Origin: Mobula hypostoma
Taxonomy: Eukaryota
DNA length: 64,000 nucleotides
Assembly: GCF_963921235.1 (NCBI RefSeq)
Contig: NC_086108.1
Location: 13,020,001-13,084,000, forward strand
Direction: 5' to 3'
Position 1 is the first letter of the stretch; the number at the start of each line of letters is the position of its first letter. The translations under genes were made by a program, and so were the position numbers. Under the pieces are notes generated by a model. It searched no databases. It saw only the letters and a program-made list of their open reading frames with translations, and was not told the origin of the DNA. Below, piece by piece: positions 8,871 through 64,000 of this stretch.

Positions 8871-8940
8871 ATATGTAGCTATTTCCATTATCTCAGTGGA
8901 CAATGAATTCTTATTGCAAACATTGTGCTGATGCCAGCAG

Positions 8941-40718: not shown

Positions 40719-40844
40719 ACATGGATGAATGTGGACAAAGGCCTTCACCCTGCCCCAATGGTCGATGCGAGAATGTGGTTGGCAGTTACCGTTGTGTGTG
40801 CTCCAGAGGATTTGTGGCCAATTCTCAAGGCACAGATTGTATTG
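40719..40844 (+). CDS. LTBP4: cbEGF exon A1 (DMDECGQRPSPCPNGRCENVVGSYRCVCSRGFVANSQGTDCI)
   Basis: Acceptor ttttcacag|, donor G|GTAATG. 126 bp, phase 1-1, 6 Cys, calcium-binding consensus. Confidence 0.92.
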
Positions 40845-41656
40845 GTAATGTCAGCAGTTTCTTACACCTCGGCCTCTCTCGATGGGATGGGTGGGGATGG
40901 ATTGAGGGTGGGATGGGGCATTCCATTTGAATGTTGAAACCCTTCGATTGAGTGGATGTGGAGAGGGTGTTTCCTATGGTAGGGGAGTCTACTGCCATAG
41001 GGCACAGCCTCAGAATAGAGGGACTTCCATTTAGGTCATAGATGAGGAGGCATTTCTTTAGACAGATGGTGGTAAATCTCTGGAATTTGTAGCCACAGGC
41101 AGCTGATTCTTGATTAGTCATGACACGAAGGGATATGGGAAGAAGGCAGGAGATTGGGGCTGAGAGGGAAAATGGATCAGCCATGATGAAATGGCTCCTT
41201 TATCTTATGGTCTTATGGTTTTAACTGAAACTCCAGGCAATTGTTGTCACTCGGGCCCAAACAGTAGGACCCAATATCTATCCACCATCTGATCCACAGG
41301 TGCATCTCCCTGACCCTATACAAATGGGGAAACAGGCATCATCCCCCCATGTTCCCAACTCTTCCCACATCCAGAGGACCACAAGGAAAGTGGAAGCAGA
41401 CTCTGTGGAGGGATTTATGGAGTCTGTTAGGTGACAGGATGGACAAAGAGGTTTAACTTTAAATCGAAGACTGGGTGTAATGAGAGAATTAAATAATTAG
41501 AATGTGCCGGGAGCTGGGACAGAATTGTTGGAGTTAAGGAGGGAGGAGATGGTCACCGTGAAATTAAAGGTTAAAACCAAGAGCAGAGGTGAGGGAATTA
41601 TCAGCCATCCCAGGACAGTGATCTCCTAACACTCCATGGATTCTGCCTTCTTTCAG

Positions 41657-41776
41657 ATATTGATGAGTGCTTGAATGAGCTCACTTGTCCAAACTCTGAG
41701 TGTGTGAATTCCATTGGATCTTTCCACTGCCTCCCCTGCTCCACAGGATACCAGATCCGGGATGGAAAGTGTACAG
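41657..41776 (+). CDS. LTBP4: cbEGF exon B1 ([40 protein letters not shown])
   Basis: Acceptor ttctttcag|, donor CAG|GTAAAA. 120 bp, phase 1-1. CxxC spacing as in recalled LTBP4 DVDECENHLACPGQECVNSPGSFQCRTCPSG. Confidence 0.92.
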
Positions 41777-43633
41777 GTAAAACTGTTAGTGTCTCTAAAC
41801 TATAGTACCGAGAGCACTGTGTGCACAGGAGAGACAGCTCTTAGAATCATCAAACATACTCAGCAAATACAGAGAAAATCTCCCTGTAACTGTCACACCA
41901 AACACCTCCAAAACAGACAGTGCAAATTAGATATAGAGTGAATCTCCTTCTACAATATCCCATTAGACATTCCCACTGTAGAGACAATGTAGGCGAGACA
42001 TAAAGGAAACCTCCTTGGTGTTGCTCACAAAACACACCCATGACAGGGATAGCACTGATTAGATGGAGAGGAAAGCTCCCTCTACACTCTGCCATCATTG
42101 GAGGGGCAAAATGAATTAGACATTAAATCTTTTTCCAATGGTTCAGAAGCTGGATTAATGATGAAATAAATCTCCCTTTGTCACATAATGTCACAGAGGG
42201 ACAACATGAGTTGGATATAGAATACATCTTAATGTTCCATTGAACATCCCACAGCAGGAACAGTGTAGATTAGTTGCAGGGTAAATCTCCTTCTAAACTG
42301 TTTTGTCACACCCTCTATGGTAGTGATATTGTATAGTAAGTACAGAAAAAATCTTCCTCTATACTGTTTCGAAGTTCAAAGGTCAAAGTAAATTTTATTA
42401 TCGAACAAAAAGTATGTCACCGTATACCACTCTGAGATTCATTTCCTTGTGGGCATGCTCAACAAACCAATATAGAATCAATGAAAGACTGCCCAACTAC
42501 AGCATTTAACCAGAGTACAGGAGACAACAAACTGTGCAAATGCAAAAAGAAGAAATAAACAAACAATAAACATCCAGAACATGAGATGAAGAGTCCTTGA
42601 TACTGACTCCATTGGTGCTGTAAACTTTTCAATGACAGGGCAAGTGAAGTTGAGTGAAGTTATCACCTCTGGTTTAAGAGCCTGATGGTTGAGGTGTAGT
42701 AACTGTTCCAGAACCTGGTGGAGTTCATCCTGTATCTTCTTCCTGCTGTCAGCAGTAAGAAGAGAGCATGTACTGGGTGACACCAGTTTGGTGTCATCTA
42801 CAAACATACTAATCAGCTCACCTACAATCTCAACCAAATTGTTAATCTATATAATGAGCCACCATCAACCCAGCTCCAATCCCTGTTGTACATTGTTGGT
42901 CACAGGTCTCCTATCTGTAAACCAGCTCTCACACTCACCCTCTGCCTCCTACCTCCAAAACCATTTTGTTTCCAATTTTCTAACTCACCTTGTATTCTAA
43001 ACTTCCTCCACAGCCTTATAAAAGGCTTTGCTATCATATAGGGCCTTATAAAAGGCCTTGCTAAAGTCTATGTAGACAACATCCACCACAGTCTCTAGTC
43101 AATCCTGTTCGTCAGTTTCTCATGAAAAATCTATTGAACTTCTGAAGTGTGATCTCCCATGAGCCATGCTGACTATCCCTAATCAGTCCTTACCTTTCCA
43201 AATGCAACTAGCTCTTAGCCCTCCGATTCCTTACAGTAACTTTCCCTCCAGTGAGTTCAGTGTTCACTGGCCCATGCTTCCTTGACTGGTGAGCGTAGAC
43301 CTTCTTAAATACAGTCACAACGTCAGCAGTCTTCCAGTACCTCACCTGTGGCTAATGAAGATACAGAAAGCGCTACCACAACCCCAGTAATCTCCTTCCT
43401 TCGCTCTCAAACAGCCCTAAAATATATCTGGTCATGCCTGAGGGATTTATCTACCATTATGTGTTACAAGACCAACAGCTGGAGGGCGGCCCCCAATCAA
43501 GCAAGGATGCAACGCTACACCACCTCCAGTGTTACCTCTCCTGGACTGCAGAAGCGGTCAACCCTCGGCTTGAGGCCTGGTCCTCAACGCAACCAAGGCC
43601 ATACATTCCCCTGCCGTCTCTCGTCCCTCCAAA

Positions 43634-45595
43634 TTGTTCATGATGAGGATGTCTCCAAGTTCACGCAAAGGGTCACGAGCTTCATCCACAAGTGCATCGA
43701 GGACATTGTCAGGGTCTATGAAAACCAGAAACCCTGGATCAACAATTGCATGCGAGCTGCACTTACTGCACAGCACAGAGCTTACATTGCATGTGACCAA
43801 CAGGAACTCAAGAAGTGCAGCTACGATCATCAAGGCGGCGAAATGACATTACAGGGACAAGATCCAGACACAACTCTCCACCGACAACACACACAGTTTA
43901 TGGTAAGGTCTGCACATCATCACAGACTTCAAAGCTAAACACAGTGGTGTTTTCCAAGTTCACTACCTCTCTCTCAGTGAGCTAAATCTTCTTTACTCTC
44001 GGTTCGATGTTGCCATCACTGAGTCCCCAGGAGAACCACGAAACGACCTGCTCCTTGGTCATCTCTGAGGCTGAAGGACGCAGGTGTTTCCAATGAGTGG
44101 ACAGTTGCAAGGCTGCAGGACCGGTCGGCATCCCAGGGCGGGTACTCGGGATGTGTGTGGCGCAACTGGCAGGTGTGTTTACAGACATTTTTAATTTCTC
44201 CCTCTCCCAGTGTAGAGTGCCCTCCTGCTTCAAAACATCCACCATTGTCCCTGTACCAAAAAATACCAAAGTAACATGTCTGAATGACTGGTGTCCTGTT
44301 GCACTAACCTCAATAATAACCAAATGCTATGAGAGGCTGGTCAAGTACTACATCTGTAGCATGCTGCCACCCACACTGGACCCCCTACGATTTGCCTACC
44401 GACACAACCGATCAACAGATGGCACAATAGCCACAGCTCTACATACCATCCTTACACATCTGGAGAAGAAGGATACTTCTGTGAGAATGCTGTTCTTGGA
44501 CTACAGTTCAATATTCAACACAATAATTTCCTCCAGACTTGACAAGAAGCTCAGAGACCTCGGCCTTCACCCTGCCTTGTGCAGCTGGATCCTGGACTTC
44601 CTGTCAGATCGCCGGCAGGTGGTAAGAGTGGGCTCCCTCACCTCTGCCCCTCTGACCCTCAACACAGGTGCCCCTCAGGGCTGTGTCCTAAGACCCCTCC
44701 TTTACTCTCTATATACTTACGACTGTGTTGCCATCCACAGCTCCAATCTGCTGATTAAATTTGCTGAGGATACTACATTGATTGGCCTAATCTCAAATAA
44801 TAACGAGGCAGCCAACAGTCATCACCCTGACACAGTGGTGTCAAGGAAACAACCTCTCCCTCAATGTCGCAAAAAACAAAGGATCTGGTTGTGGACTACA
44901 GAAGGAATAGAGACGGGAATAGAGATATTAACCTCAATGGATCTGGGGTTGAGAAGATGAACAGCTTTAAGTTCCTTGGCATATACAGCACCGAAGATCT
45001 CATGTGGTCTGTACGTACCAGCTGTGTGGTGAAAAAAGCACAGCAGTGCCTCTTTCACCTCAGACGGATGAAGAGGTTTAGTATGGGCCCCAAATCCTAA
45101 GAAATTTCTATAGGGGCACAACTGAGAGCATCCTGACTGGCTGCATCACTGCCTGGTATGGGAACTGTACCTCTCTTAATCACAGGACTCTGCAGAGAGT
45201 GGTGCGGACAGCCCAGCGCGTCTATAGATGTGAACTTCCCAATATTCAGGACGTTTACAAATACAGGTGTGTAAAATGGACCCGAAGGATCATTGGTGAC
45301 CTAAACTATCCCAGCAACAATCTATTGCAGCTGCTACCATCCGGGAAACGGTACTGCAGCATAAAATCCAGGACCAACAGGCTCTAGAACAGCTTTGTCC
45401 ACCAGGCCATCAGATTGATTAATTCACACTGATACAATTATATTTCTATGATATATTGATTGTCCTGTTGTACATACCATTTATTGCAAGTTATTATAAA
45501 TTGCACATTGCACATTTAGACAGAGACAAAATGTAAAGATTTTTACTCCTCATGTATATGAAGGATGTAAGTAATAAAGTCAATTCAATTCAGTT
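43634..45595 (+). mobile_element. Rex1/Babar-like LINE, 5'-truncated RT, present only in the B1-A2 intron
   Basis: ORF 44097-44960 (KAAGP.GIPGRVL..C..QLAGVFTDIFN...LFLDYSS.FNTI...GAPQGCVL.P). (CAATT)n tail. Interrupts the unit motif ccaccaaacaa.tgatataa. Confidence 0.88.
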
Positions 45596-45711
45596 CAAAC
45601 AAGTGATATAACGAATTGCTGAGGGAGTTGTTACTGAGTTGAGATGAAGGGAATTCATGCCATCTAGTAGCTGCTTTGGAGTAACACAATGTGGGTACCA
45701 TCTGATGAGCC

Positions 45712-46592
45712 ATACTGATGATACAAAGATAGGTGGAGGTGCAGGTGGTGTAGAGGAAACAGAGAGTCTGCAGAGAGACTTAAATAGTTTAGGGAAATGG
45801 GCAAAGAGGTGGCAAATAAAATACAATGTTGGAAAGTGTATGGTGGAAGAAATAAATAGGCAGACTATTATTTAGATGGGGAGAGAATTCAAAATGCTGA
45901 GATGCAAAGGGACTTGGGAGAACTTGTGCAAGATACCCGAAAGGTTAACCTCCAGGTTGAGTTGGTAGTGAAGAAGGCAAATGAAATGTTGGCATTCATT
46001 TCTAGAAGTATAGAATATAAGAGCAGGAATGTGTAGTTGAGGCACTCGTGAGACCACACTTGGAGTATTGTGTGCAGGTTTAGGCTCTTTATTTTAGAAA
46101 TGATATAATGACATTGGAGAGGGTTCAGAGAAGATTCCAGGAATAAAAGGGTTACTGTATAAGGAATGTGTGGCAGCTCTTGGGCTATATTCCCTGAAGT
46201 TCAGGAGAATGAGGGGTGATCTCACAGAAACATTCCAAATGTTAAAAAGCCTGAACAGACTAGATATGGCAAAATTATTTCCCATGGTAGGGGAGTCTAG
46301 GATAAGAGGACACAATTTCAGGATTGAAGGATACCCTTTGAAAACAGAGGTGCGGAGAAATTACTTTAGTCAGAAGGTGGTAAATCCATGGACTTTGTTG
46401 CTACAATCGGCTGTGGAGACCAAGTCATTGGGTGCATTTAAGGCAGAGATAGATAGGTTCTTGATTAGCCAGGACGACAAAGGGTATGGGAAGAAGGCAG
46501 GGAAGTGGGGATGACTGAAAGAATTGGAACAGCCCATGATTGAATGGCGGAGCAGAATTGGTGGGCTGAATGGCCTCCTGTATTTTATGGTC
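45712..46592 (+). mobile_element. CR1 3' fragment, present only in the B1-A2 intron
   Basis: Starts at DDTKIGG and ends at ttttatggtct. Splits the unit motif gatgagccacaatgtccaactgcc. Confidence 0.85.
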
Positions 46593-46729
46593 TAATGTCC
46601 AACTGCCTGAAGAGTGGTTTAGTGTTGATTCATAACCAATGTCAGAGTGCAGATGCAATCAGACTTGGGTGAGGTATCTAATATTCCCAGGATTATGGGA
46701 TTATGTGTTGTGTTTTGTTTTTTCCACAG

Positions 46730-46855
46730 ACATGGATGAATGTGGACAAAGGCCTTCACCCTGCCCCAATGGTCGATGTGAGAATGTGGTTGGCAGTTAC
46801 CGTTGTGTGTGCTCCAGAGGATTTGTGGCCAATTCTCAAGGCACAGATTGTATTG
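46730..46855 (+). CDS. LTBP4: cbEGF exon A2 (same protein as A1)
   Basis: AG/GT intact. One synonymous difference from A1 (TGC>TGT). Confidence 0.88.
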
Positions 46856-46987
46856 GTAATGTTGGCTGCGTCTTACGCCTCGGCCTCTCTCGATGGAATG
46901 GGTAGGGATGGACTGAGGGTGGGATGGGGAATCCATTTGAATGTTGAAGGCTTCTGTAGAGTGGATGTGGAGAGGATGTTTCCTATG

Positions 46988-47582
46988 ATCATCATCATCA
47001 TCTGATGCCGTGCCCAGTTTGAGCTTTGACTGCCATGGCCCACACACTCCTGTTTCGGGTCAAGTGGATCAATTCACTGGTATTCACTTCCAATTCTCTG
47101 GCTGCTATCTCCATCATAATTTGTCTTTGTCTTCCTCTTGCTTTCTTTCCTTCAATCTTTCCCATAATTACTGTGCATTCCAACTCCTCTTTCCTAATCA
47201 CAAGTCCAGTGAAGTTACGTTGCATTTTCATGATCTCATACATTATTTCTCTTTTTGTGTTTACTCTGTTCATGAAATCCTTGTTAGATATTCATTTCAT
47301 CCATGATATTCTTTGCACCCTCCTCAAAAACCACATCTCTGCTGCTATAATTCGTTTCCTCATGTTACTAGATATTGTCCAACATTCTGAGCCATATAAC
47401 ATAACTGGATAAATGTAACATTTCAGTACTCTGAGGCGGGTTGTCATGCCTAGTTTAGTATTGGTCAGTATACACTTCATTCTTGTAAAGATGTCTTTTG
47501 CCATCCCTATTCTTCTTTTGATGTCCAAGTCGCACCTGACGTCTGATGTCACCCAACTTCCTAAGAAGCAAAAGTTCTGTAT
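46988..47582 (-). mobile_element. RTE-clade LINE 3' fragment, present only in the A2-A3 intron
   Basis: Minus ORFs FCFLGS...DIKRRIGMAK..F...MLYGSECWT and GKIEGKKARGRQR. (GAT)n tail at about 46988-47002. Confidence 0.85.
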
Positions 47583-49349
47583 TATGGTAGTGGAGTCTAA
47601 AGTCAGAGGGCACAGCCTCAGAACAGAGGGATATCCACTTAGAATGGAGATGAAGAGGAATTCTGTAATCCAGAGAATGGTAAATCTGTGGAATACGTTG
47701 TCACAAGCAGCTGAGGAGGCCAAATCATTGGATATATTTAAGGCAGATCTTTCGCTTTGTAATCAGTCAGGGCATGAAGGGATATGGATCGAAGGTAGGA
47801 GATTGGGTCTGAGAGGAAAAAATGGATCAGCCATTATAAAACTACAAGGGAATCAATGAAAACCACCCAACTAGGGTGTTCAACCAGTGTGCAGTAGACA
47901 ACAAACTGCAAATACAAAAAGAAGAAATAATAATAATAGATAAGCACTAAATATTGAAAACATGAGATGAAGTGTGCTAGAAAGTGAGTCCATTGCCTTC
48001 AGGAACATTTCAATGACAGGGCTAGTGAAGTTGAGTGAAGTTATCACCTCTGGTTTAAGAGCCTGATGGTTAAGGGGTAGTAACTGTTCCTGAACCTGGT
48101 TGTGTAAGTCCTGAGGCTCCTGTACCACCTTCCTGATGACAGTAGTAAGAAGAGAGCATGCACTGGGTGGCACCAGTTTGGTGTCATCTACAAACGTACT
48201 AATCAGCTCACCTACAATCTCAACCAAATTGTTAATTTATATAATGAGCCACCATCAACCCAGCTCCAATCGTTGTACATTGTTGGTCACGGGTCTCCAA
48301 TCTGCAAACCAACCCTCACCCTCAAGCTCTGCCTGTTACGACAAAACCCCATTTGAATCCAATTTTCTAACGCGTCTTGTATTCTAACCTTCTTCACCAG
48401 CCTACAGACAGGACCTCGTAAAAGGCCTTGCTAAAGTCTATGTAGACAACATCCACCACACTGCTCAAGTACAACATGTTGGTCACTTCCTCATGAAAAT
48501 CTATCAGACTTCTGAAGCATGATCTCCCATTAACCATGCTGACTATCCATGATCGGTCCTTGCCTTTCCAAATGCAGCTAGCCCTCAGAATCCCTTACAG
48601 AAACTTATCCTCCAGTGGGTTCAGTGTTCACTGGCCTGTGCTTCCTTGACTGGTCCATGTAGCCCTTTTTAAATACAGTCCCGACATCAGCAATCTTCCA
48701 GTAACTCACCTGTGGCAAATGAAGATACAGAATTCACTACCATGACCCCAGCAGTTTTCTTCCTTCCCTACCAAAATAACCTAGAATACACCTGGTCATG
48801 CCCTAGGGATTAATCCACTATTATCTGCTTCAAAACCACTAATGGGAGGGCAGTCCCCAACTGTGCATGAACGCAATGCTACACCACTTCCAGTGTCTCC
48901 TGCCCTGGACTGCAGCAGCCCTAATCTCCTGACTTGTCCCTGTATCTCATCGTTCCCTGACTAATCAAGAATCTATCAACATCTGCCTTAAATATACCCA
49001 ATGACTTGACCTCCACAGTCACCTGTGGAAACAAATTCTACAGATCTGTGGCCTAGTCCTCCCTACAACCAAGGCTACACAACTCCCCCGCTGTCTGTCA
49101 TGCCACCAAACAAATTATATAACAGATTGCTGGGGGAGATGCTACTGAGTTGAGATGAAGGGAATTCATACCACCCACTAACTACTTTAGATTAACTGCA
49201 ATATGTGTACCATCAGAGGAACCACAACGTCCAACTACCTAAAGAGAAGTTTAATGTGGGTTCATAACCAATGTCAGAGTGCAGTTGCAATCAGACTTGG
49301 GTCAGGTATCTAATGTTCCCAGGATTGGAGAGTTTTGTGTTTTCCACAG

Positions 49350-49475
49350 ATATGGATGAATGTGGACAAAGGCCTCCACCCTGCCCCAATGGTCGATGCG
49401 AGAACGTAATTGGCAGTTACCGTTGTGTGTGCTCCAGAGGATTTGTGGCTAATTCTCAAGGCACAGATTGTATTG
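49350..49475 (+). CDS. LTBP4: cbEGF exon A3 (variant RPPP, ENVI)
   Basis: AG/GT intact, 126 bp, open frame, all Cys kept. Confidence 0.88.
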
Positions 49476-50359
49476 GTAATGTCAGCAGTTTCTTACGCCT
49501 CGGCCTCTCTCGATGGGATGGGTGGGGATGGATTGAGGGTGGGATGGAGGAATCCATTTGAATGTTGAAAGACCTCGACAGAGTGGATGTGGAGAGGATG
49601 TTCCTGTGAGGGTGGAATCTAAGACCAGAGAGCACAGCCTCAGAATAGAAGGACATCTATTTATAACAGAGATGTAGAGGAATTTCTTTAGCCAGAGAGA
49701 GGTAAATCTGTAGAATTAGTTGCCACAAGTGGCTGTGGAGGCCAAGTCATTGCATATATTTAAGGCAGACCTTGATAGAATCATGATTAGTCAGGGCATG
49801 AAGCGATACAGACAGAAGGCAGGAGATTGGGGCTGAGAAGGAAATATGGATCAGCCACAATAAAATGGCAGATCAGACTTGATGGGCTAAATGGCCTAAT
49901 TCTGCTCCTATATCATATGGTCTTATGGTCTTAACTGAGTTTCCAGGCAATTGTCATTCTAGCCAGTACACCGCACTAGTATCTATTCAACATCTGACCC
50001 ACAGGTTCATCACCCTGACCCTTTACAAATGAGTGAACAGCCATCTGCTCCCATGTTCCCAGCTCCTCCTCCATCCAAATTAATCACATGGAATGTGGGA
50101 GCAGACCCCATGGAGAAAGATTCATGGAGTCTGTAAGGTGACAGGACGGATAAAGAGGTTTAATTTTAAATTGAAAAATGGGTGTAATGACAGAATTAAT
50201 TGGAATGTGCTGGGAGCTGGGACAGAATTGTTAGAGTTAAAGAGGGAGGAGATGGTCACCATGAAAATGAAGGTTAAAAGCAAGAGCAGGGGTGAGGGAA
50301 TTATCAGCCATCCAGGGACAGTGATCGCCTAACTCTCCATGGATTCTGCTTTCTTTCAG

Positions 50360-50479
50360 ATATTGATGAGTGCTTGAATGAGCTCACTTGTCCAAACTCT
50401 GAGTGTGTGAATTCCATTGGATCTTTCCATTGTCTCCCCTGCCGCACAGGATACCAGATCCGGGATCGAAAGTGTACAG
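50360..50479 (+). CDS. LTBP4: cbEGF exon B2 (variant PCRTGYQIRDRKCT)
   Basis: AG/GT intact, 120 bp, open frame, all Cys kept. Confidence 0.88.
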
Positions 50480-53060
50480 GTAAAACAGTTAGCGTCTCTA
50501 ACCAGTAGAACTTTGAGCCTTGTGCACGTGGGAGTCATCAAACCTACTCAGCAAATAGAGAGAGAAGCTTCCTCTAACTGTCAATGGTTCAATTTAATGT
50601 CAGACAATGCATACAATCTGAATCAGTACTCGTCACAGGCATCCACGAAACAGAAATAAACTCAAAGAATGAATGACAGAAAACATTAGAACTCCAAAGC
50701 CCCCTCTCCCCCTCCCCCACTTGCTCCAGCAAAAACATTGACCCTGCGCCCTGAACCACCCAATTCAAAGTCCCCCAAAGTGACTTTAAGGTAAAGTCCA
50801 TCAAAAACGACAGTCCTTCCCATTCCTTCAGTATCTCAGATAGGCTCTCTCTCAAGCGGGGTTAAAGAGAAATCGCTCCTGAAACAAATGAGTGAGGGAG
50901 ACCAGCAGCTCAGTTTTGATGTCTCATCAAAAACTTCCAAGACAGACAATGCAGATTAGATATGGAGTGAATCTCCTTCTACACTATCCCATTAGACATT
51001 CCCACAGCACGGTCAACACAGACTAGATCTAAAATGAACCTCCACTGCGCTGACCCATCAAACGTTCCCATGACAGGGATAGCACAGAGCAGACAGAGAG
51101 AAAAGCTCCCTCTGCACTCTCCCATCACAGGAGGGACAAAATGAGTTAGGGATTAAATATTTTCCTTCACTATCATTTCAAGTGGTCGAGAAGCCAGATT
51201 AATTAGGAATAAATCTCCCCTTGTCATATACTGTCACAGAGCGACAACGTGAGTTGGGTATAGAGTATGTCTTCATGTTCCATTTAATATCCCACAGCAG
51301 GAACAGTGTAGATTAGTTGTGGGGCAAATCTCCATCTAAACTGCTTTGTCACACCCTCTATGGTGGTGATAGTGTACAGTAGGTACAGAGTAAATCTTTC
51401 TCTATGCTGTTTCGAAGTTCAAAGTAAATTTTACTATCAAACCACAGACGTATATGCCACCATAGATAACCGTGAGAATGATTTTGTAGTTGGCATACTC
51501 AAGAAATCTATGGAATAATAACTACAAGGGACTCAGTGAAAAACCCCCCAACTAGGGTGTTCAACCAGTGTGCAGAAAACAACAAACTGTGCAAATACAA
51601 AAAGAAGAAACAATAATAGTAAATGAATAAGCACTAAATATCGAAAACATGAGATGAAGCATGTTCGAAAATGAGTCCATTGCCTTCGGGAACATTTCAA
51701 TGACAGGGCTAGTGCAGCTGAGTGAAGTTATCACCTCTAGTTTAAGAGACTGATGGTTGAGGGGTAGTTTCTGTTCCCGAACCTGGTGGTGTAAGTCCTG
51801 AGGTTCCAGTAACTTCTTTCTGATGACAGCAGTAAGAAGAGAGCATGTACTGGGTGACACCAGTTTGATGTCATCTACAAACATACTAATCAGCTCACCT
51901 ACAATCTCAACCAAATTGTTAATTTATATAATGAGCCACCATCAACCCAGCACCAATCCCTGTTGTACATTGTTGGTCACAGGTCTCCAATCTGTAAACC
52001 AGCTCTCACACTCGCCCTCACCCTCAATCTCTGCCTCCTACCACCAAACCCTATTTGGATCCAATTTTCTAACTCACCTTGTATTATAATCTTCTTCACC
52101 AGCCTATCATACAGGACCTTGTAAAAGGCCTTGCTGAACTCCATGTAGACAACATCCACCACGCTGCTCAAGTCAATCCTGTTGGTTACTTCCTCATGAA
52201 AAATCTATCAAACTTCTGAACCATGATCTCCCATGAACCATGCTGACTATCCCTAATCAGTCCTTGCATTTACAAATGCAACTAGCTCCTAGTCCTCAAA
52301 ATCCATTCCAGTAACTTGCCCTCCAGTGAGTTCAGTGTTCACTGGGCTGTGCTTCCTTGACTAGTTCATGTAGACCTTCTTAAATACGGTCACAACATCA
52401 GCAATCTTCCAGTACCTCACCTGTGGCTAAAGAAGATACAGAAATCACTACTGCGATCCCAGTAGTTTTCATTCTTTCCTACCAAAATGACCTAGAATAC
52501 ACCTGGTCATGCCCTAGGGATTTATCCACTATTATCTGCTTCAAAACCACCAATGGGAGGACAGCCCCCAACCGTGCATGGACGCAACGCTACACCACCT
52601 CCAGTGTCTCCTTCCCTGGACTGCAGCAGCCCTAATCTCCTGACTTCTCCCTGTATCTCATCATCCCCTGACTAATCAAGAATCTATCAACATCTGCCTT
52701 AAATATACCCAATGACTTGGCCTCCACTGTCACCTGTGGAAACAAATTCTACAGATCTGTGGCCTAGTCCTCACTACAGCCAAGGCTACACAACTCCCCC
52801 GCCATCTGTCGTGCCACCAAACAAATGATATAACAGATTGCTCGGGGAGATGTTACTGAGTTGAGATGAAAGGAATTCATGCCATCCACTACCTACTGTA
52901 GATTAACTGCAATATGTGTACCATCAGGTGAGCCACAATGTCCAACTGCCTAAAGAGTAGATTAGTGTGGATTCATAACCAATGTCAGAGTGCAGTTGTA
53001 ATCAGACTTGGGTCAGGTATCTAATGTTCCCAGGATTGGAGAGTTTTGTGTTTTCCACAG

Positions 53061-53186
53061 ATATGGATGAATGTGGACAAAGACCTTCACCCTGCCCCAA
53101 TGGTCGATGCGAGAACGTGGTTGGCAGTTACCGTTGTGTGTGCTCCAGAGGATTTGTGGCTAATTCTGAAGGCACAGATTGTATTG
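53061..53186 (+). CDS. LTBP4: cbEGF exon A4 (variant NSEGTDCI)
   Basis: AG/GT intact, 126 bp, open frame. Confidence 0.88.
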
Positions 53187-54056
53187 GTAATGTCAGTGGT
53201 TTCTTACACCTCGGCATCTCTCGATGGGATGGGTGGGGATGGACTGAGGGTGGGATGGAGGAATCCATTTGAATGTTGAAAGGCCTCGACAGAGTGGATG
53301 TGGAGAGGATGTTTCCTGTGATGGTGGAATCTAAAACCAGAGAGCACAGCCTCAGAATAGAGGGACATCCATTTATAACAGAGATGAAGAAGAATTACTT
53401 TAGCCAGAGAGAGGTAAATCTGTAGAATTAGTTGCCACAGGTGGCTATGGAGGCCAAATCATTGGATATATTTAAGGCAGACATAGATAGAATTGTGATT
53501 AGTTAAGCATGAAGAGATATGGACAGAAGGCAGGAGATTGGGACTGAGAAGAAAAAATGGATCAGCTGTAATAAAATGGCGGAGCAGACTGGATGGGCTA
53601 AATGGCCTAATTCTGCTCCTATATCTTATGGTCTTAACTGAGTCTCCCAATTGCAGTCACTCCAGCCAGTACACCACCCCAGTATCTATACAGCATCTGA
53701 CCCACAGGTTCATCACCCTGACCCTTTACAAATGGGTAAACTGCCACCTTCCCCCATGTTCCCAGCTCCTCCTCCATACAAAGAATGAGAGGGATTGTGG
53801 GAGCAGGCCCCATGGAGAAAGATTCATGGAGTCTGCAAGGTGACAGGGCAGATAAAGAGGTTTAACTTTAAATTGAAAACAGGCTGTAATGGCAGAATTA
53901 AATAGAATGTGCTGGGAGCTGGGACAGAATTGTTGGAGTTGAAAATGGAGGAGATGGTCACCATGAAAGTAAAGGACCAAGAGCAGAGGTGAGGGAATTA
54001 TCAGCCATCCAGGGACAGTGATCGCCTAACACTCCATGGATTCTGCTTTCTTTCAG

Positions 54057-54176
54057 ATATTGATGAGTGCTTGAATGAGCTCACTTGTCCAAACTCTGAG
54101 TGTGTGAATTCCATTGGATCTTTCCACTGCCTCCCCTGCTCCACAGGATACCAGATCCGGGATGGAAAGTGTACAG
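54057..54176 (+). CDS. LTBP4: cbEGF exon B3 (nucleotide-identical to B1)
   Basis: AG/GT intact, 120 bp, identical to B1 by eye. Confidence 0.88.
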
Positions 54177-56116
54177 GTAAAACTGTTAGCGTCTCTAACC
54201 TGTAGCATTTAGAGTCTTGTGCACATGGGAATCATCAAACCTACTCAGCAAATACAGAGAAAAGCTTCCTCTAACTGTCAATGGTTCAATTTAATGTCGG
54301 ACAATGCATACAATCTGAATCAGTACTCGTCACAGGCATCCACGAAACAGAAATAAACCCAAAGAATGAATGACAGAAAACATTGGAACTCCAAAGCCCC
54401 CTCTCCCCTCCCCCACTTGTTCCAACAACAACATTGATCCTCCTCTCTGAACCCCCAATTCAGAGTCCCCCAAGGTGACCTCAAACTTTGTGACCTAGCA
54501 CAGAATAGACAGAGAGGAAAGCTCTCTCTTCACTCTCCCATCACTGTAGGGACAACATGAGTTAGGGATTAAATCTTTCTCTTCACTATCGTTTCAAGTG
54601 GTCCAGAAGCCAGATGAATTATGGAATAAATCTCCCTTTGTCATCAACTATCACAGGGACAATGTGAGTTGGATATAGAGTATGTCTTCATGTTCCATTG
54701 AACATCCCACAGCAGGAATAAATAAACACATAATATCAAGAACATGAGATGAAGCATATTCGAAAGTGAGTTCATTGCCTGCGGGAACATTTCAATGATA
54801 GGGCAAGTGAAGATGAGTGAAGGTATCACCTCTGGTTTAAGAGCCTGATGGTTGAGGAGTAGTAACTGTTCCTAAACCTGGTTGTGTAAGTCCTGAGGCA
54901 TCTGTAACATCTTCCTGATGATAGCAGTAAGAAGAGAGCATGTACTTGGTGACATCAGTTTGGTGTCATCTACAAGCATACTAATCAGGTCACGTACAAT
55001 CGCAACCAAATTATTAATTTATATAATGAGCCACCATGAACCAAGAACCAGTCCCTGCTGTACATTGTTGGTCACAGGTCTCCAGTCTGTAAAGCAACTC
55101 TCACAGTCACCCCTCTGCCTCGTACCACCAGATCCCTTTTGTATCCAATTTTCTAACTCACCTTGTATTCTAAACTTCCTCCGCAGCCTTATAAAAGGCT
55201 TTGCTATCATATAGGGCCTTATAAAAGGCCTTGCTAAAGTCTATGTAGACAACATCCAACACACTGCTCAAGTCAATCCTGTTGGTCACTTCCTCATGAA
55301 AAACCTATCAAACTTCTAAAGCGTGATCTCCCATGAACCCTGCTGACTATCCCTAATTGGTCCTTGCCTTTCCAAATGCAGCTAGCTCTTAGCCCTCAGA
55401 ATCCCTTACAGTAACTTTCCCTCCAGTGAAGTTTCTGTTCACTGGCATGTGCTTCCTTGGCTGGTCCATGTAGACTTTCTTAAATAAAGTCACAACATCA
55501 GCAATCTTCCAGGACCTCACCCGTGGCTAATGAAGGTACAGAAATCACTACCATAATCCCAATAGTTTTCTTCCTTCCCTACCAAAATAACCTAGAATGC
55601 AACTATTATCTGCTTCAAAACCCCCAACCGAGCATGGCTGCAATGCTACACCACCTCCAGTGTCTCCTCTCCTGGACTGCAGCAGCCCCAATCTCCTGAC
55701 TTCTCCCTGTATCTCATCATTCCCTGACTAATCAAGAATCTATCAACATCTGCCTTAAATATACCCAATGACTTGACCTCCACAGTCACCTGTGGAAACA
55801 AATTCTACAGATCTGTGGCCTAGTCCTCACTACAGCCAAGGCTACACAACTCCCCCGCTGTCTGTCATGCCACCAAACAAGTGATATAATATATTTCTGG
55901 GGGAGATGTTACTGAGTTGAGATGAAGGGAGTTCATGCCACCCACTAACTAATTTGAACTAACTACAATGTGCATACCATCAGATGAGCCACAATGACCA
56001 ACTGCCTAAAGAGCAGTTTAATATGGGTTCATAACCAATGTCAGAGTGCAGTTGCAATCAGACTTGGGTCAGGTATCTAATGTTCCCAGGATTGGAGAGT
56101 TTTGTGTTTTCCACAG

Positions 56117-56242
56117 ATATGGATGAATGTGGACAAAGACCTTCACCCTGTCCCAATGGTCGATGCGAGAACGTGGTTGGCAGTTACCGTTGTGTGTGCT
56201 CCAGAGGATTTGTGGCCAATTCTCAAGACACAGATTGTATTG
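56117..56242 (+). CDS. LTBP4: cbEGF exon A5 (variant NSQDTDCI)
   Basis: AG/GT intact, 126 bp, open frame. Confidence 0.88.
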
Positions 56243-58108
56243 GTAATGCTGACTGCATCTTATGCCTCGGCCTCTCTTGATGGGATGGGTGGGGATGGAT
56301 TGAGGGTGGGATGGAGGAATCTATTTGAATGTTGAAGGCTTCTGTAAAATGCATGTGGAGAGGATATTTCCTATGGTAGTGGATTCTAAAGTCAGAGGGC
56401 ACAGCCTCAGAATAGAGGGACATCCACTTAGAATGGAGATGAAGAGGAATTCTGTAAGCTAGAGAATGGTAAATCTGTGGAATACGTTGTCACAAGCAGC
56501 TGAGGAGGCCAAATCGTTGGATATACTTAAGGCAGATCTTTAGCTTTGTAATCAGTCAGGGCATGAAGGGATACGGACAGAAGGTAGAAGACTGGGGCTG
56601 AGAGGAAAAAATGGATCAGCCATAATAAAACTACAAGGGAATCAATGAAAACCACCCAACTAGGGTGTTCAACCAGTGTGCAAAAGACAACAAACTGTGC
56701 AATTACAGAAAGAAAAAAACAATAATAATAAATAAATAAGCACTAAATATCGAAAACATGAGATGAAGCGTGCTAGAAAGTGAGTACATTGCCTGCAGGA
56801 ACATTTCAATGACAGGGCTAGTGAAGTTCAGTGAAGTTATCACTTCTGGTTTAAGAGCCTGATGGTAACTGTTCCTGAACCTGGTGGTGTAAGTCCTGAG
56901 GTTCCAGTAACTTCATGTACTGGATGACACCAGTTTGGTGTTATCTACAAACATAGTAATCAGCTCACCTACAATCTCAACCAAATTGTTAATTTATATA
57001 ATGAGCCAGCATCAACCCAGCACCAGTCCCTGCTGTACATTGTTGGTCACAGGTCTCCAATCTGTAAACCAATTCTCATGCTCACCCTCTGCCTCCTAAC
57101 ACTAAACCCATTTTGTACCCAATTTTCTAACTCACCTTGTATTCTAACCTTCTTCACCAGCCTACAGACAGGACCTTGTAAAAGGCCTTGCTAAAGTCTA
57201 TGTAGACAACATCCACCACACTGCTCAAGTACAACATGTTGGTCACTTCCTCATGAAAATCTATCAGACTTCTGAAGCATGATCTCCCATTAACCATGCT
57301 GACTATCCATGATCGGTCCTTGCCTTTCCAAATGCAACTAGCCCTCAGAATTCCTTACAGAAACTTATCCTCCAGTGGGTTCAGTGTTCACTGGCCTGTG
57401 CTTCCTTGACTGGTCCATGTAGCCCTTCTTAAATACAGTCCCGACATCAGCAATCTTCCAGTAACTCACCTGTGGCAAATGAAGATACAGAATTCACTAC
57501 CATGACCCCAGCAGTTTTCTTCCTTCCCTACGAAAATGACCTAGAATACACCTGGTCATGCCCTAGGGATTAATCCACTATTATCTGCTTCAAAACCACT
57601 AATGGGAGGGCAGTCCCCAACTGTGCATGAACGCAATGCTACACCACTTCCAGTGTCTCCTCCCCTGGACTGCAGCAGCCCTAATCTCCTGACTTGTCCC
57701 TGTATCTCATCGTTCCCTGACTAATCAAGAATCTATCAACATCTGCCTTAATTTACCCAATTACTTGGCCGCTACAGTCACCTGTGGCAACTAATTCTAC
57801 AGATCTGTGGCCTAGTCCTCACTACAATCAAGGCCACACAACTCCCACGCCGTCTGTCGTGCCACCAAACAAATGATATAACAGATTGCTGGGGGAGATG
57901 TTACTGAGTTGAGATGAAGGGAATTCTTGCCACTCACTAACTACTCTGGATTAACTGCAATATGTGTACCATCAGATGAGCCACAATGTCCATCTGCCTA
58001 AAGAGAAGTTTAATGTGGGTTCATAACCAATGTCAGAGTGCAGTTGCAATCAGACTTGGGTCGGGTATCTAATGTTCCCAGGATTGGAGAGTTTTGTGTT
58101 TTCCACAG

Positions 58109-58234
58109 ATATGGATGAATGTGAACAAAGGCCTTCACCCTGCCCCAATGGTCGATGCGAGAACGTGGTTGGCAGTTACCGTTGTGTGTGCTCCAGAGGA
58201 TTTGTGGCTAATTCTCAAGGCACAGATTGCATTG
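58109..58234 (+). CDS. LTBP4: cbEGF exon A6 (variant DMDECEQR)
   Basis: AG/GT intact, 126 bp, open frame. Confidence 0.88.
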
Positions 58235-59111
58235 GTAATGTCAGCAGTTTCTTACACCTCGGTCTCTCTCGATGGGATGGGTGGGGATGGATTGAGGGTG
58301 GGATGGGGGAATCCATTTGAATGTTGAAAGGCCTCGACAGGGTGGATGTGGAGAGGATGTTTCCTATGATGGTGGAATCTAAGCCTCAGAATAGAGGGAC
58401 ATCTATTTATAACAGAGATGAAGAGGAATTTCTTTAGCCAGAGAGAGTTAAGTCTGTAGAATTAGTTGCCACAAGTGGCTGTGGAGGCCAAGTCATTCGA
58501 TATATTCAAGGCAGAAGTTGATAGAATTGTGATTAGTCAGGGCATGAAGAGATACTGATAGAAAGCAGGAGACTGGGGCTGAGAAGAAAAAATGGATCAG
58601 CCACAAGAAAATGGCAGATCGGACTCGATGGGCTAAATGGCCTAATTCTGCTCCTATATCATATGGTCTTATGGTCTTAGCTGAGTCTCCAGGCAATTGT
58701 AGTCATTCTAGCCAGTACACCGCCCCAGTATCTATCCAACATCTGACCCACAGGTTCATCACCCTGACCCTCTACAAATGAGTGAACAGCCATCTGCTCC
58801 CATGTTCCCAGCTGCTCCTCCTCCATCCAAATTAATCACACGGAATGTGGGAGCAGACCCCATGGAGAAAGATTCATGGAGTCTGTAAGGTGACAGGACA
58901 GATAAAGAGGTTTAGTTTTAAATTGAAGACAGGCTGTAATGGCAGAATTAATTAGAATGTGCATGGAGCTGGGACAGAATTGTTGGAGTTAAAGAGGGAG
59001 AAGATGGTCACCATGAAATTAAAGTTTAAAACCAAGAGCAGAGGTGAGGGAATTATCAGCCATCCAGGGACAGTGATCTCCTAACACTCCATGGATTCTG
59101 CTTTCTTTCAG

Positions 59112-59231
59112 ATATTGATGAGTGCTTGAATGAGCTCACTTGTCCAAACTCTGAGTGTGTGAATTCCATTGGATCTTATCACTGCCTCCCCTGCTCCACA
59201 GGATACCAGATCCGGGATGGAAAGTGTACAG
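59112..59231 (+). CDS. LTBP4: cbEGF exon B4 (variant GSYHC)
   Basis: AG/GT intact, 120 bp. The F>Y change keeps the consensus aromatic residue. Confidence 0.88.
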
Positions 59232-60659
59232 GTAAAACAGTTAGTGCCTCTAACCTGTAGCATTTAGAGTCTTGTGCACATGGGAATCATCAAACCTACT
59301 CAGCAAATACAGAGAAAAGCTTTCTCTAACTGTCAATGGTTCAATTTAATGGCGGACAATGCATACAATCTGAATCAGAACTCTTCACAGACATCCCCAA
59401 AACAGAAAGAAAACCCAAAGAATGAATGACAGAAAACTTTAGAACTCCAAAGCCCCCTCTCCCCTCCCCCACTTGCTCCAAGATCCTCCTCTCTGAACCC
59501 CCAATTCAGAGTCCCCCAAAGTGACCTCGAACTTTCTGACCTAGCACAGAGTAGACAGAGAGGAAAGCTCTCTCTGCAATCTCCCATCACTGTAGGGACA
59601 ACATGAGTTAGGGATTAAATATTTTTCTTCACTATCATTTCAAGTGGTCCAGAAGCCAGATGAATTATGGAATAAATCTCCCTTTGTCATCTACTATCAC
59701 AGGGACAACGTGAGTTGGGTATAGAGTATGTCTTCATGTTCCATTGAACATCCCACAGCAGGAACAGTGTAGATTAGTTGTGGTGCAAATCTCCATCTAA
59801 ACTGTTTTGTTACACCCACTTTGGTAGTGATATTGTCGAGTAGGTACAGAGAAAATCTTGCTCCATACTCTTTGGAAGTTCAAAGTAAATTTTATTATCA
59901 AACCTCATATATGTCACCCTGAGAATCATTTTGTAGTGGGCATACTCAAGAAATCTATGGAATAATAACTACAAGGGACTCAGTGAAAAACCCCCCAACT
60001 AGGGTGTTCAACCAGTGTGCAGAAAACAACAAACTGTGCAAATACAAAAAGAAGAAACAATAATAATAAATAAATAAGCAATAAATATCGGCAACATGAG
60101 ATGAAGCGTGTTCAAAAGTGAGTCCATTGCCTGCGGGAACATTTCAATGACAGGGCTAGTGAAGTTATCACCTCTGGTTTAAGAGCCTGATGGTTGAGGG
60201 GTAGTTTCTGTTCCTGAACCTGGTGGTGTAAGTCCTGAGGCTCCTGTACTTTCTTCCTGATGACAGCAGTAAGAAGAGAGCATGCGCTGGGTGACACCAG
60301 TTTGGTGTCATCTACAAACATACTAATCAGGTTATCTGCAATCTCAACCAAATTGTTAATTTATACAATGAGACACCATGAACCCAGCACCAAATCCTGC
60401 TGTACTTTGTTGGTCACAGGTCTCCAATCTGTAAACCAACCGTCACCCTCACCCTCTGCCTCTTACCACCAACCCATCATACTGGTCATGCCCAGGGATT
60501 TATGCACTATTATGTGCTTCAAGACCACCAACTGGAGGGCAGCCCCCAACCAAGCAAGGACTCACTACACCACCTCCAGTGTCTCCTCTCCTGGACTGCA
60601 GCAGCAGGGAACCCCACAGTTGTCTTGTCTTGTCCATACTGCACCAACCGCAGCCGCTG

Positions 60660-60805
60660 GGCTATAAACGTGCAGGAGCAATGTGTGGTTAAGTACCTTG
60701 CTCAAGGACACAACACGCTGTCTCCAAATGCAATTCTCTCCTCAGCTGCAGCTTGAACTCACGACCTTCAGATCACTAGTCCAACGCCTCAACCACTTCG
60801 CCATG
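60660..60805 (-). mobile_element. tRNA-derived SINE head, present only in the B4-A7 intron
   Basis: Minus strand reads tggcgaagtgg (A-box-like), gagttcaagc (B-box-like), then gtgtccttgagcaaggtacttaa. Confidence 0.65.
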
Positions 60806-61105
60806 AGGCTTAGTCGTCGCTAAAACCGAGATTGCGCTGCTCCCCTGTCGTCTGTCATGCCACCAAACAAAGGATACAACAAATTGCTGGGGGAATGTTA
60901 CTGAGTTAAGATGAAGAGGATTATTGCCATCTAGTAGCTTCTTTGGAGTAACTACAATGTGCATACCATCAGATGAGCCACAATGACCAACTGCCTAAAG
61001 AGCAGTTTAATATGGGTTCATAACCAATGTCAGAGTGCAGTTGCAATCAGACTTGGGTCAGGTATCTAATGTTCCCAAGATTGGAGAGTTTTGTGTTTTC
61101 CACAG

Positions 61106-61231
61106 ATATGGATGAATGTGGACAAAGGCCTTCACCCTGCCCCAATGGTCGATGCGAGAACGTGGTTGGCAGTTACCGTTGTGTGTGCTCCAGAGGATTT
61201 GTGGCCAATTCTCAAGGCACAGATTGTACTG
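61106..61231 (+). CDS. LTBP4: cbEGF exon A7 (variant GTDCT)
   Basis: AG/GT intact, 126 bp, open frame. Confidence 0.88.
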
Positions 61232-62090
61232 GTAATGTCAGCAGTTTCTTACACCTCGGCCTCTCTCGATGGGATGGGTGGGGATGGACTGAGGGTGGGA
61301 TGGGAGAATCTATTTGAATGTTGAAATGTCTCCACAGAGTGGATGTGGAGAGGCTGTTTCCTGTGATGGTGGAATCTAAAGTCAGAAAGCTCAGCCTCAG
61401 AAGAGAGGGACATCTACTTAGAATGGAGATCAGGAGGAATTTTTTAAACCAGAGAATGGTAAATCTGTGTAATACATTGTCACAAGCAGTTGAGGAGGCC
61501 AAATCATTGGGTATATTTAAGGCCAATGTTTAGATTTGTAATTAGTCAGGGCATGAAGGGATATGGAAAGAAGGCAGAATATTGCAGCTGAGAGGGAAAA
61601 TGAATCAGCCATGATGAAATAGCTTAAATCTGTTCCTGTACCTTATCGTCTTTTGGTCTTAACCGAGTCTCCAGGCAATTGTTGTCACTCTAGCCAGAAC
61701 AGTGGGGCCCAGTATCTATCTAACATCTGACCCACATGTACACCACTCTGACCCCTTACAAATGAGGAAACAGGCATCTGCCCCCATATTCCCAGCTCTT
61801 CTCACATCCAGAGGAACACAGGGAACGTGGGAGCAAACCTGTGGAGGAAGTTTCATAGAGTCTGTAAGGTGACAGGACAGATAAAGAGTATTAATTTTAA
61901 GTTGAAGACAGGGTGTAATGACAGAATTAATTGGAATGTGCTGGGAGCTGCGGCAGAATTGTTGGAGTTAAAGAGGGAGAAGATGGTCACCATGAAATTA
62001 AAGGTTAAAACCAAGAGCAGAGGTGAGGGAATTATCAGTCATCCAAGGACAGTGATCGCCTAACACTCCATGGATTCTGCTTTCTTTCAG

Positions 62091-62210
62091 ATATTGATGA
62101 GTGCTTGGACGAGCTCACTTGTCCAAACTCTGAGTGTGTGAATTCCATTGGATCTTTCCACTGCCTCCCCTGCCCCACAGGATACCAGATCCGGGATCGA
62201 AAGTGTACAG
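62091..62210 (+). CDS. LTBP4: cbEGF exon B5 (variant CLDEL...PCPTGYQIRDRKCT)
   Basis: AG/GT intact, 120 bp, open frame. Confidence 0.88.
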
Positions 62211-64000
62211 GTAAAACAGTTAGCGCCTCTAACCTGTAGAACTTTGAGCCTTGTGCACGTGGGAGTCATCAAATAGAACGAAAAGCTTCCTCTAACTGTC
62301 AATATTTGAATTTAATATCATAGAATGTATACGACCTGAAATTCTTACTCTTTGCAGACATCCACAAAAGAGAAAACTCCCCAAAGAATGAATGACAGAG
62401 AACATCAGAACCCCAAACCACCCCCCATTCCTCCTCACACACAGAAGTAGCAGTAGTGGCGTCAACTCTTCCCCTCCCCTGCTTGCTCCAGCAAAAGCAT
62501 CGACCCACCCTCCCTGCACCATGCAAGGAATAGCAATGTCCCTAAAGGGATCTTGGTCAAGAGTCCATCTAAAACTTCGGTCTGTCCCAACGCTTCAGTA
62601 TCTCAGACAGACCAGACAGACTCCCTCTCTCTTTCTAGCAAGTGGGAGAGAAATCACTTAAAAACATTACTAATTCGATTAAACCATTACTGCTAACACT
62701 TCTTTGAAATAAATTCTGGTAAAATATCACTGCAAGCAGTGAAGAAGCAATTAAAGGTGGTGGATTCGAGAAATGGGCCTTGCTGGTATGCTGCAAAATC
62801 GATGCAGCGGAGCTGGAGCCATGCCGGTTGGAGTGAACAATTCGGAGAGGAGAAGTCGAGGTTGTGGAGTTCCGATGCCCTTCCAACTAACTTGGGTGCA
62901 AGGGTGGCTTGCTGTAGACACCAAGCTGATTTGGAGAGGTTGAGAATGGATTTTTCGGCAGTGTCATCTGGGCACAAAGCAAATTGCTGGGCGGCATGTG
63001 CTAGGCCTGGAGCAATTTGCGCAGCGAAGCCTGGGTCCTAATACAATCTGCCTTTGGATGATTTAAATGCCTGCCACATAGACTGGAAAGGCAGATAGTC
63101 AAGAGGTGGGTGAGGATGGATCACTTTAAGTGCCGAGCAGAGTTGGAGAGGTTAAGAACAGCTTCTTTAGCAGTGAAATCTTGGCCTGAAGTGAATGAGC
63201 TGGGTGGTATTTTCTAGGCCCGAAGTGATTTGTCACAGTAGAACCCAAGTGCTAATGTGAGGTGCGATCCACTGTGGAAAGACTGGGTGCCGAGTGTCTG
63301 GAAAGGTTGGATTGCTCTGGGCATTGAGCTGATTTGGGGAGGTCAAGAACGGCTTCTTCAGCAGTGAGTTCCAGGCCTGGAGCAGTTCGATGCAGCAGAG
63401 CCTGGGTCCTAATGTGAGGTGCGATCCGCTCTTTAGACAATGTAAACACCAGCCTGGATAGACTGGGCATCCCTTTCTTCATGACACTAAGACTCTGAGA
63501 CTGGCCCCAACTGCTGTGCTTTGTGCCTGCAAACTTTCCCGCTAATATGATGAACTGAATAACTGAATACCAAGGCTTTGGACCTACTCTAGGCTGTTCC
63601 GGGGATTTGGATCATTTTGGTTCAGAATGCTCTTGTTGGTGCTCCCTTCTATCATTTACATGATTTTTTTCTCTCTCTTTCTCTGAGGGGGTTGGTCTTT
63701 TTTTAATAGCCTTCTTTCAGGTTCCTTGCTTTGCGACTGCCTGTAAGCAAACAAATCCCAAGGTTGTATCATTTATACATTCTTTGATAATAAATGTACT
63801 TTGAATCTTTGAATCTTCTGCATCAAATGAGAATGGGTGACCAGCAGCTCACTGCTTTGATGTCTCATCAAAAACTTCCAACACAGACAATGCAGATTCG
63901 ATATAGAGTGAATCTCCTTCTACACTATCCCATTAGACATTTGCTTGGCAGGGACAACACAGACTTGCTCTAAAATAAACCTCCTCTGTGCTGACCCATC

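Follow-up and report, generated by a model that had tools for sequence, protein, structure and literature searches.

A twelve-exon array of two cbEGF module types in the LTBP4-like gene of the devil ray Mobula hypostoma

Why should a single ray gene carry a dozen near-identical exons in a row, and are they put to use? [quoted passage not shown] A first reading, made from the letters of the window and referred to below as the sequence-only reading, had proposed a recent amplification particular to this lineage. Our analysis shifts the emphasis: the array is real and functional, and it is older and more widespread than that reading held.

Anatomy of the array and identity of the gene

The array occupies 40719..62210 on the plus strand. 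Its A exons are 126 nt long and number seven, its B exons are 120 nt long and number five, and they follow one another as A B A A B A B A A B A B. Exon alignment delimits A1 (40719..40844), B1 (41657..41776, of the C4-x-x-C5 type), A2 (46730..46855), A3 (49350..49475), B2 (50360..50479), A4 (53061..53186), B3 (54057..54176), A5 (56117..56242), A6 (58109..58234), B4 (59112..59231), A7 (61106..61231) and B5 (62091..62210), with additional support from Pfam for A1 and B1, from intron alignment for A2 and A7, from exon-bounded pieces of putative RNA contigs for B3, and from a further such piece, with a 4-nt extension as from a B-to-A splice, for A5. Ahead of the array lies exon N (38784..38915, plus strand), a single non-calcium EGF identified by its match to the public protein model and by exon-bounded contig pieces. 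All A and B exons are flanked by AG/GT splice ends in symmetric phase and are free of stop codons, and in 12/12 the six cysteines and the calcium-binding and packing motifs are intact, including the D-x-D-E-C start, whose first Asp arises across the splice junction, the N-x4-aromatic motif and the Gly-aromatic packing pair; PF07645 (EGF_CA) scores above cut-off for A1 and B1. Any two A copies are 1-7 nt apart, and any two B copies 0-7 nt. The count, order and frame given by the sequence-only reading were all recovered on re-examination, as was its proposal that the exons had been duplicated along with their introns, since homologous introns align at about 80-93% identity, with private insertions and deletions.

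The limits of the array had been drawn less accurately. It had been described as comprising at least 12 exons and as still running at position 64000, but there are exactly 12, and beyond 62210 only intron homology continues: the start of the B5-E intron (62211..64000 within the window, plus strand, by intron alignment) is spacer-like as far as ~64336, and the next exon, at ~66056, encodes a different cbEGF. A whole-genome search with A and B returned exactly 7 A and 5 B copies, all within the window; no further A or B exon lies in the 120 kb downstream, and no N is present in the 264 kb of assembly examined. The 494 aa said to have been added are correct as the total of the array; set against the one AB pair of sharks, the protein has gained 412 aa net.

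The gene itself is, by its domains and its place in a tree, the LTBP4 orthologue. The only public model for it (XP_062919690.1, our P0022, LTBP4-like) equals the translated locus exactly over 1842/1934 residues and includes all 12 array exons; residues 1-89 were not located in the 80 kb upstream, and three junction residues are also unmatched. Its 3 TB and 23 EGF_CA stretches (Pfam) were mapped exon by exon onto the locus and give the order EGFs, hybrid, cbEGF, TB, EGF, central cbEGF run, TB, 2 cbEGF, TB, EGF, cbEGF, that is, a hybrid and three TB domains among EGF/cbEGF runs, as in the LTBP family. The three TB matches at the locus were also found by the genome search, the hybrid domain being assigned by position and cysteine pattern alone. 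By count of TB matches, the genome contains four LTBP-type and three fibrillin-type loci. In a tree of TB2+TB3+TB4 (140 columns, midpoint root, no mammal, Neoarius excluded as only two TB were parsed), the window gene joins the LTBP4 of coelacanth, frog, bird and fish with support 100/99, in agreement with the earlier naming of the gene, and the genome's three further LTBP-type loci go with LTBP1 (83/71, weak), LTBP2-like and LTBP3. Several database entries for sharks and sawfish carry names that point to LTBP1, an identity that this tree rules out. Orthologues of the gene in sharks and rays that bear LTBP1-like labels include P0016, P0167, P0169, P0214 and P0024; those placed in the tree, P0016 and P0215, fall with LTBP4.

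The array sits between TB2 (24.6 kb) and TB3 in a gene spanning at least 185 kb, so that its earlier placement N-terminal to a TB domain of TGF-beta-binding type holds. TB3 aligns gap-free to LTBP1 TB3 (1KSQ, E 1.6e-21), and its Cys6-Cys7 loop is two residues longer than that of a fibrillin TB (1APJ); the Cys6-Cys7 area is said to bind latent TGF-beta (PMC8446450), and judged by this loop TB3 is of the predicted TGF-beta-binding type. The ray protein shares domain order and TB clade with other vertebrate LTBP4 proteins and differs from them in length: it has 23 cbEGFs by Pfam, 19 of them central, against 8 central in sharks and ~13 in human, the last figure being a subtraction from published totals (20 EGF-like domains, 17 calcium-binding; PMC8446450). 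A twin at least 85% identical exists for 14/19 of the ray central cbEGFs.

Constraint, construction and spread

Near-identity of exons could signal youth or upkeep. Synonymous pairwise divergence (pS) is 0.098 for A and 0.063 for B, comparable with 0.076-0.123 in the flanking introns; nonsynonymous divergence (pN) is 0.018 and 0.026, giving pN/pS of 0.18 (A) and 0.42 (B). At variable sites 11/23 changes are synonymous vs 22% expected (P=0.005; A alone P=0.012), and in a star-tree simulation of neutral decay all 12 exons stayed intact with probability 7e-6 to 4e-4. These figures argue that all 12 exons are under purifying selection, and the exons are near-identical because of that selection, not because they are young. 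A very recent origin is ruled out by the intron-like synonymous divergence. The copies are ~8-12% apart at neutral sites, several times the 2.2% that separates this genome from a second species (81 differences/3693 bases in contigs of a second-species DNA run, over the eight intron or exon-N pieces listed, seven of them intronic), and dasyatid stingrays share the expansion, so the word 'recently' in the sequence-only reading has to be given up. Some gene conversion among copies may have occurred: the exons B1 and B3 have the same sequence between flanks that are 11-15% divergent, and A5 and A7 share an identical 100-nt stretch upstream.

A smaller duplication in the same gene shows what can happen to a spare copy. 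Downstream lies a C-D-C'-D arrangement (L002:8556-8684, L003 ~6896-7021, L004:430-558 and ~1100-1225; 82.6-95.2 kb in window numbering), in which C' is 95.6% identical to C and keeps its splice sites; one of its Cys has been lost and a new one acquired. The two D copies give the same translation. C' is absent from all four myliobatiform models. Because C' lost a Cys and is missing from the models, a superfluous copy can evidently decay in LTBP4. Doublings of C/D occur elsewhere as well, as CDCD in sawfish and in versions of their own in frogs and birds.

The introns record how the array was built. Divergence is highest in those of A1-B1 and A7-B5; the three inner A-B introns group together (100/100). 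The outer units, to which A1 and A7 belong, are the oldest. Each of the solo exons A2, whose B partner was deleted, and A5 precedes a chimaeric intron that begins as an A-B intron and switches, at one shared breakpoint, to a B-A spacer. The deletion junction behind A2 lies at 47830..47850 (approximate) and matches ~56630, within the second copy behind A5 (56620..56640, approximate, by intron alignment), with short A/T-rich microhomology. Because the A2-A3 and A5-A6 junctions share this breakpoint, B was deleted once and the deletion was later copied. An ancestral A-B pair was thus duplicated with its introns, one B was deleted, and the solo-A junction was copied again. Unequal crossing-over would be the likely engine of duplication, which is easy here because phase-symmetric exons preserve the reading frame. 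A dispersed repeat near the first duplication junction is only 67-68% identical to its copy in the N-A1 intron, the first breakpoints were not located, and DNA trees built from the A and B exons plus short flanking stretches mostly lack resolution. Sawfish has one B, and of the ray copies B5 comes nearest to it, at 90% against 80-85% for B1-B4. The B1-A2 intron alone contains a ~2-kb insertion (43587..45595), highly repeated in the genome, with very high contig depth and no counterpart in the other spacers, which is probably a retroelement. Of the marks of a functional tandem exon duplication, homologous exons and introns, intact splice sites and protein constraint are present.

How far does the expansion extend beyond Mobula? 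Slot modules, meaning those of the A/B region, were counted in one protein model per species, usually the longest, all models outside the window being automated. A homologue search with the EGF-rich region was dominated by fibrillins among the best 120 of 2403 matches, and a non-EGF query worked. The sample includes no skate, guitarfish, chimaera or mammal, which is a gap and not an absence, and a Sphaeramia model was unparsed and stands outside the counts. All myliobatiform rays (4/4) have 12-13 slot modules, ordered ABAABABAABAB in two Mobula models and ABAAAAAABABAB in Hemitrygon and Hypanus, and all four have Ser in the first B and Pro in the last B at the same position. A single AB is found in 11/12 other chondrichthyan models (sawfish, electric ray and 9/10 sharks); the exception, catshark model P0241 with three identical A, may be a young expansion of its own or may stem from assembly or annotation. 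The A and B modules of rays join those of sharks and sawfish with support 97 and 98. The array is accordingly derived within rays, as had been supposed, and its distribution suggests that the expansion began in the myliobatiform common ancestor and then continued separately.

The comparison with orthologues that the sequence-only reading had called for was run for rays against sharks and bony fishes (12-13 vs mostly 2, and up to 22 in eels), and it removed the claim that the expansion is unique to the ray lineage. The coelacanth model has 14 slot modules, sturgeons and paddlefish 7-15, three eels 15-22, a mormyrid 15, an arowana 7 and one catfish 18; stickleback and pipefish have 4-5, frogs 5 (6/6) and birds 3-7 (6 birds). 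Near-identical twin modules occur in coelacanth, sturgeons, eels, mormyrid and catfish, not in frogs. Models of coelacanth, frog and bird have one B-type module towards the start of the run, with 2-6 A-type modules before it in frogs and birds. Trees of these 40-residue modules have few supported forks. The modules cluster by lineage much more strongly than under shuffled labels (for B, 9 changes against 32.7 after shuffling; for A, 18 against 66.6). Behind the slot, 22/22 models have 6-8 modules, varying only in C and D, with E, F, G and H single. Taken together, these models indicate that the A/B slot is a recurrent expansion hotspot, with separate amplifications in coelacanth, sturgeons, eels, a mormyrid and a catfish; the gnathostome ancestor may have had AB or about AAAAB. 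Outside LTBP4, the LTBP2-like models of great white shark and sawfish (P0175, P0176) contain 2-3 near-identical cbEGF twins.

Possible functions of the added length

We read the array as a working tandem exon amplification that probably acts as a calcium-stiffened spacer. Most or all copies are probably spliced in together, in which case the protein would carry 19 central cbEGFs instead of 8, and calcium at the domain interfaces would hold them as an extended, semi-flexible arm, longer than that of sharks by ~21-29 nm. This estimate is arithmetic for ten extra modules from LTBP1, in which 11 tandem cbEGFs, part of a molecule whose contour is 55 nm, measure 23.2 nm by small-angle X-ray scattering where an ideal rod would reach 32 nm (PMC5039643). 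The longer arm would separate an N-terminal end that binds fibulin, fibronectin and heparan sulphate from a C-terminal end comprising TB3, for latent TGF-beta, and the tropoelastin and fibrillin binding regions. In LTBP4 the N-terminal part binds cells and, by LTBP1 homology, matrix partners, tropoelastin and latent TGF-beta1 are ligands of the C-terminal part, and N-to-C contacts maintain a compact form that fibulin-4 opens (PMC8446450, PMC11960800, PMC8224675, PMC2172518). A longer arm would alter the reach between the two ends, with a possible effect on elastic fibres or TGF-beta, and the A/B slot would serve as a length-adjustable spacer. That the added length was itself favoured by selection, and not merely tolerated, seems somewhat less likely than not. 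More tentative still is the wider proposal of a dedicated slot, independently amplified (2 to 22 modules) and used by selection, perhaps also by splicing, to set the reach from matrix anchor to TGF-beta and tropoelastin.

Evidence on splicing comes from runs X21, X22 and X23, which were guessed to be RNA and none of which is recorded as such; X21 is from the second species and is flagged 'probably DNA'. Run contigs were compared with 38700-58690 only, so that B4, A7 and B5 lie outside, runs X9-X20 (7-11% of words) were excluded, and exon joints were inferred from the best 32 of ~105,000 contig pieces. Pieces from these three runs on exons N (X21 and X22), A and B are bounded by splice sites. 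One X21 piece runs 4 nt beyond the acceptor of A5 and then departs from the genome sequence, and only B exons end in those letters; the overhang suggests a B-to-A splice at A5, and that contig would therefore not come from a single-AB-cassette transcript. An X23 piece is preceded by A or N, which are indistinguishable there. In X21 the A and B pieces have depths of 55-88 vs 25 for the exon-N contig, and in X22 16-20 vs 5.6. Strict mutually exclusive use, with a single A and a single B in every transcript, is argued against by the B-to-A piece and by this roughly threefold depth, a modest result from one indirect contig. As a separate observation, an X22 contig on a B exon (window:54140, same species label) shows two differences from B3, and not one of the five assembled B copies matches it from end to end; it may be an allele, a recombinant copy or a contig chimaera.

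Several points weigh against the spacer reading or the evidence behind it. The LTBP1 cbEGF run is flexible and not a rigid rod, though calcium holds it extended (PMC5039643). Taken by itself, B does not reach significance in the selection test (P=0.15), and the simulation result would be softened by gene conversion. The B-to-A splice is a single contig from the second species, in the run flagged as probable DNA; contig depth is a poor measure, the ~3-3.5x of A/B over exon N being a weak hint; and no read or contig among the run data spans the array. In Hypanus, predicted isoforms X3-X7 and X9 (nine parsed) skip 1-5 modules, with 8-13 in the slot, and LTBP4 length may by these models vary through splicing in that genus. 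Part of the bony-fish cases were found by a search ordered by score, in which long arrays have the advantage, and they give no estimate of frequency; a second coelacanth model gives 8 slot modules, not 14.

The competitor to be taken most seriously differs from the spacer reading on function only. Where introns are rich in repeats, symmetric exons are readily duplicated, and the added length may simply be harmless, with selection merely purging copies that misfold or leave a cysteine unpaired. Such an accordion is consistent with a slot of 2 to 22 modules with no evident ecological pattern, with benthic stingrays and pelagic devil rays both at 12-13 by different arrangements, and with a C/D duplication that also comes and goes; purifying selection on included exons is expected either way. 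Yet the other central exons are equally symmetric, and E, F, G and H remain single in the parsed models; devil rays and dasyatids have arrived along separate routes at near-equal central totals (19 vs 20); two Mobula species share one and the same order; and the superfluous C' decayed, as none of the 12 did. We regard tolerated length as a possibility of real but limited weight.

It is rather unlikely that the array is above all a splicing cassette, whose alternative exons would make LTBP4 of graded, tissue-specific length or, taken to its limit, admit just one A and one B to each transcript. Every array exon is frame-symmetric, mammalian LTBPs are alternatively spliced (PMC5039643), and predicted isoforms with different module numbers exist in Hypanus, as described above, and number 14 in Polyodon; predicted isoforms of near-identical exons can, however, reflect mis-mapped reads. 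The inferred B-to-A junction and the excess depth of A and B counter strict mutual exclusion, near-identical copies give little functional choice, and the single Mobula hypostoma model includes all 12. Still less probable is that A or B holds a binding site whose multiplication raises avidity for a partner or for self-association. The same two modules were amplified repeatedly across lineages, and the repeated tenascin-W domains offer a precedent (PMC1578592), but modules are 45-60% alike between lineages, some of which amplify A only, and in the sources cited above the interactions mapped for LTBP4 fall within the N-terminal part and near the C-terminal TB domains, a cell-binding site mapped only to the N-terminal half being a partial exception.

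We consider it very improbable that a long array is ancestral to jawed vertebrates, was homogenised by gene conversion and was lost in sharks. Many bony vertebrates have at least five slot modules, and the identical B1/B3 exons and A5/A7 flanks hint at conversion, but the single AB of sawfish, electric ray and 9/10 sharks would need several independent losses, and ray introns alignable at about 80-93% are not expected of a very old array. False duplication by the assembly can be discounted, being ruled out by the diverged introns with their private indels and by second-species intron pieces that are copy-specific (96-99% identity at depth 36-60, the next-best copy at <=88%), and the protein model of another Mobula has the identical module order.

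The wider locus and the meaning of the array

Upstream of the array, exact translated matches to P0022 place on the plus strand a coding exon leading from the N-terminal region into the hybrid domain (8940..9194, residues 304-388), a hybrid domain exon (16080..16181, residues 389-422), a short coding exon (19465..19515, residues 423-439) and the cbEGF exon preceding TB2 (21203..21325), followed by the 8-Cys TB2 exon (24612..24776, PF00683 over cut-off), all with approximate ends, and by two hinge exons matched to the same model (25680..26228, at ~25680-25838 and 26148-26228). A 31-bp minisatellite of ~23 copies (window:8170-8902) ends ~40 bases upstream of the first of these, and pyrimidine-rich (CT) simple-repeat tracts occupy window:36120-37640 and 38540-38780, the second directly upstream of exon N. 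SHKBP1 and NUMBL are expected neighbours of LTBP4. On this contig a NUMB-family gene lies 8.8 Mb from it, and an open reading frame on the minus strand ~50 kb beyond the last coding exon (L011:6452-6874), which has no Pfam or Atlas match, is one we take to resemble SHKBP1/KCTD3.

Some TB-family matches elsewhere deserve mention. A lone one (G000:C50:11266609-11266704) lies on the same contig, 1.8 Mb from the gene. Two LTBP2-like matches, L027 (G000:C1:17729771-17729905) and G000:C1:17675159-17675260, have an internal TAG stop; TB2 from L027 parsed cleanly, and the TAG-containing matches probably overrun exon ends. In the LTBP2-like TB3 of sharks and rays (P0175, P0178, P0179; L028) the Cys6-Cys7 loop has four residues, as in TGF-beta-binding LTBPs, and chondrichthyan LTBP2 may on this feature have retained TGF-beta binding. 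Mammalian LTBP2 does not bind TGF-beta (PMC2172518).

The kind of event described here is already known. The third FN3 domain of tenascin-W was multiplied to 1 to 9 copies depending on lineage (PMC1578592), and tenascin-X shows concerted evolution and variable domain counts (PMC11401434). Like these, the ray gene duplicated a module of a matrix protein to lineage-specific numbers; unlike them, it did so with a two-exon cbEGF unit that acquired higher-order structure, in an adaptor of TGF-beta and elastin. The central 11-cbEGF array of the paralogue LTBP1 is a calcium-extended spacer between matrix-binding and TGF-beta-binding ends (PMC5039643), with modules that are diverged and non-repetitive, and it is the template for our reading of the ray array. 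The array has been annotated automatically and is present in the RefSeq LTBP4-like models of rays (XP_062919690.1, Hypanus, Hemitrygon); a full-text literature search found no paper on it or on LTBP4 length variation across vertebrates. PMC3906135, in the part available, covers only the C-terminus, and a term search of the main text of a 2026 manta and devil ray genome preprint (10.64898/2026.10.27.761883) returned no LTBP, EGF or exon duplication.

The locus offers a well-resolved case of array building, by duplication of a pair, one deletion and the copying of a block, followed by upkeep under selection. Its interest lies mainly in the recurrent hotspot and in a length series that can be put to the test. 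The central cbEGF run of LTBPs has been treated as a spacer, and in the literature covered we found no test of the effect of its length. A single orthologue now provides a natural series, from 8 central modules in sharks through 19-20 in stingrays and devil rays to as many as 28 in an eel model, together with a short-versus-long contrast within the rays themselves, with which spacer effects on elastin deposition, on the compact-to-extended switch by fibulin-4 and on TGF-beta activation can be tested. If the slot does tune length, elastic-fibre geometry or the force that releases TGF-beta would be adjusted by the number of modules.

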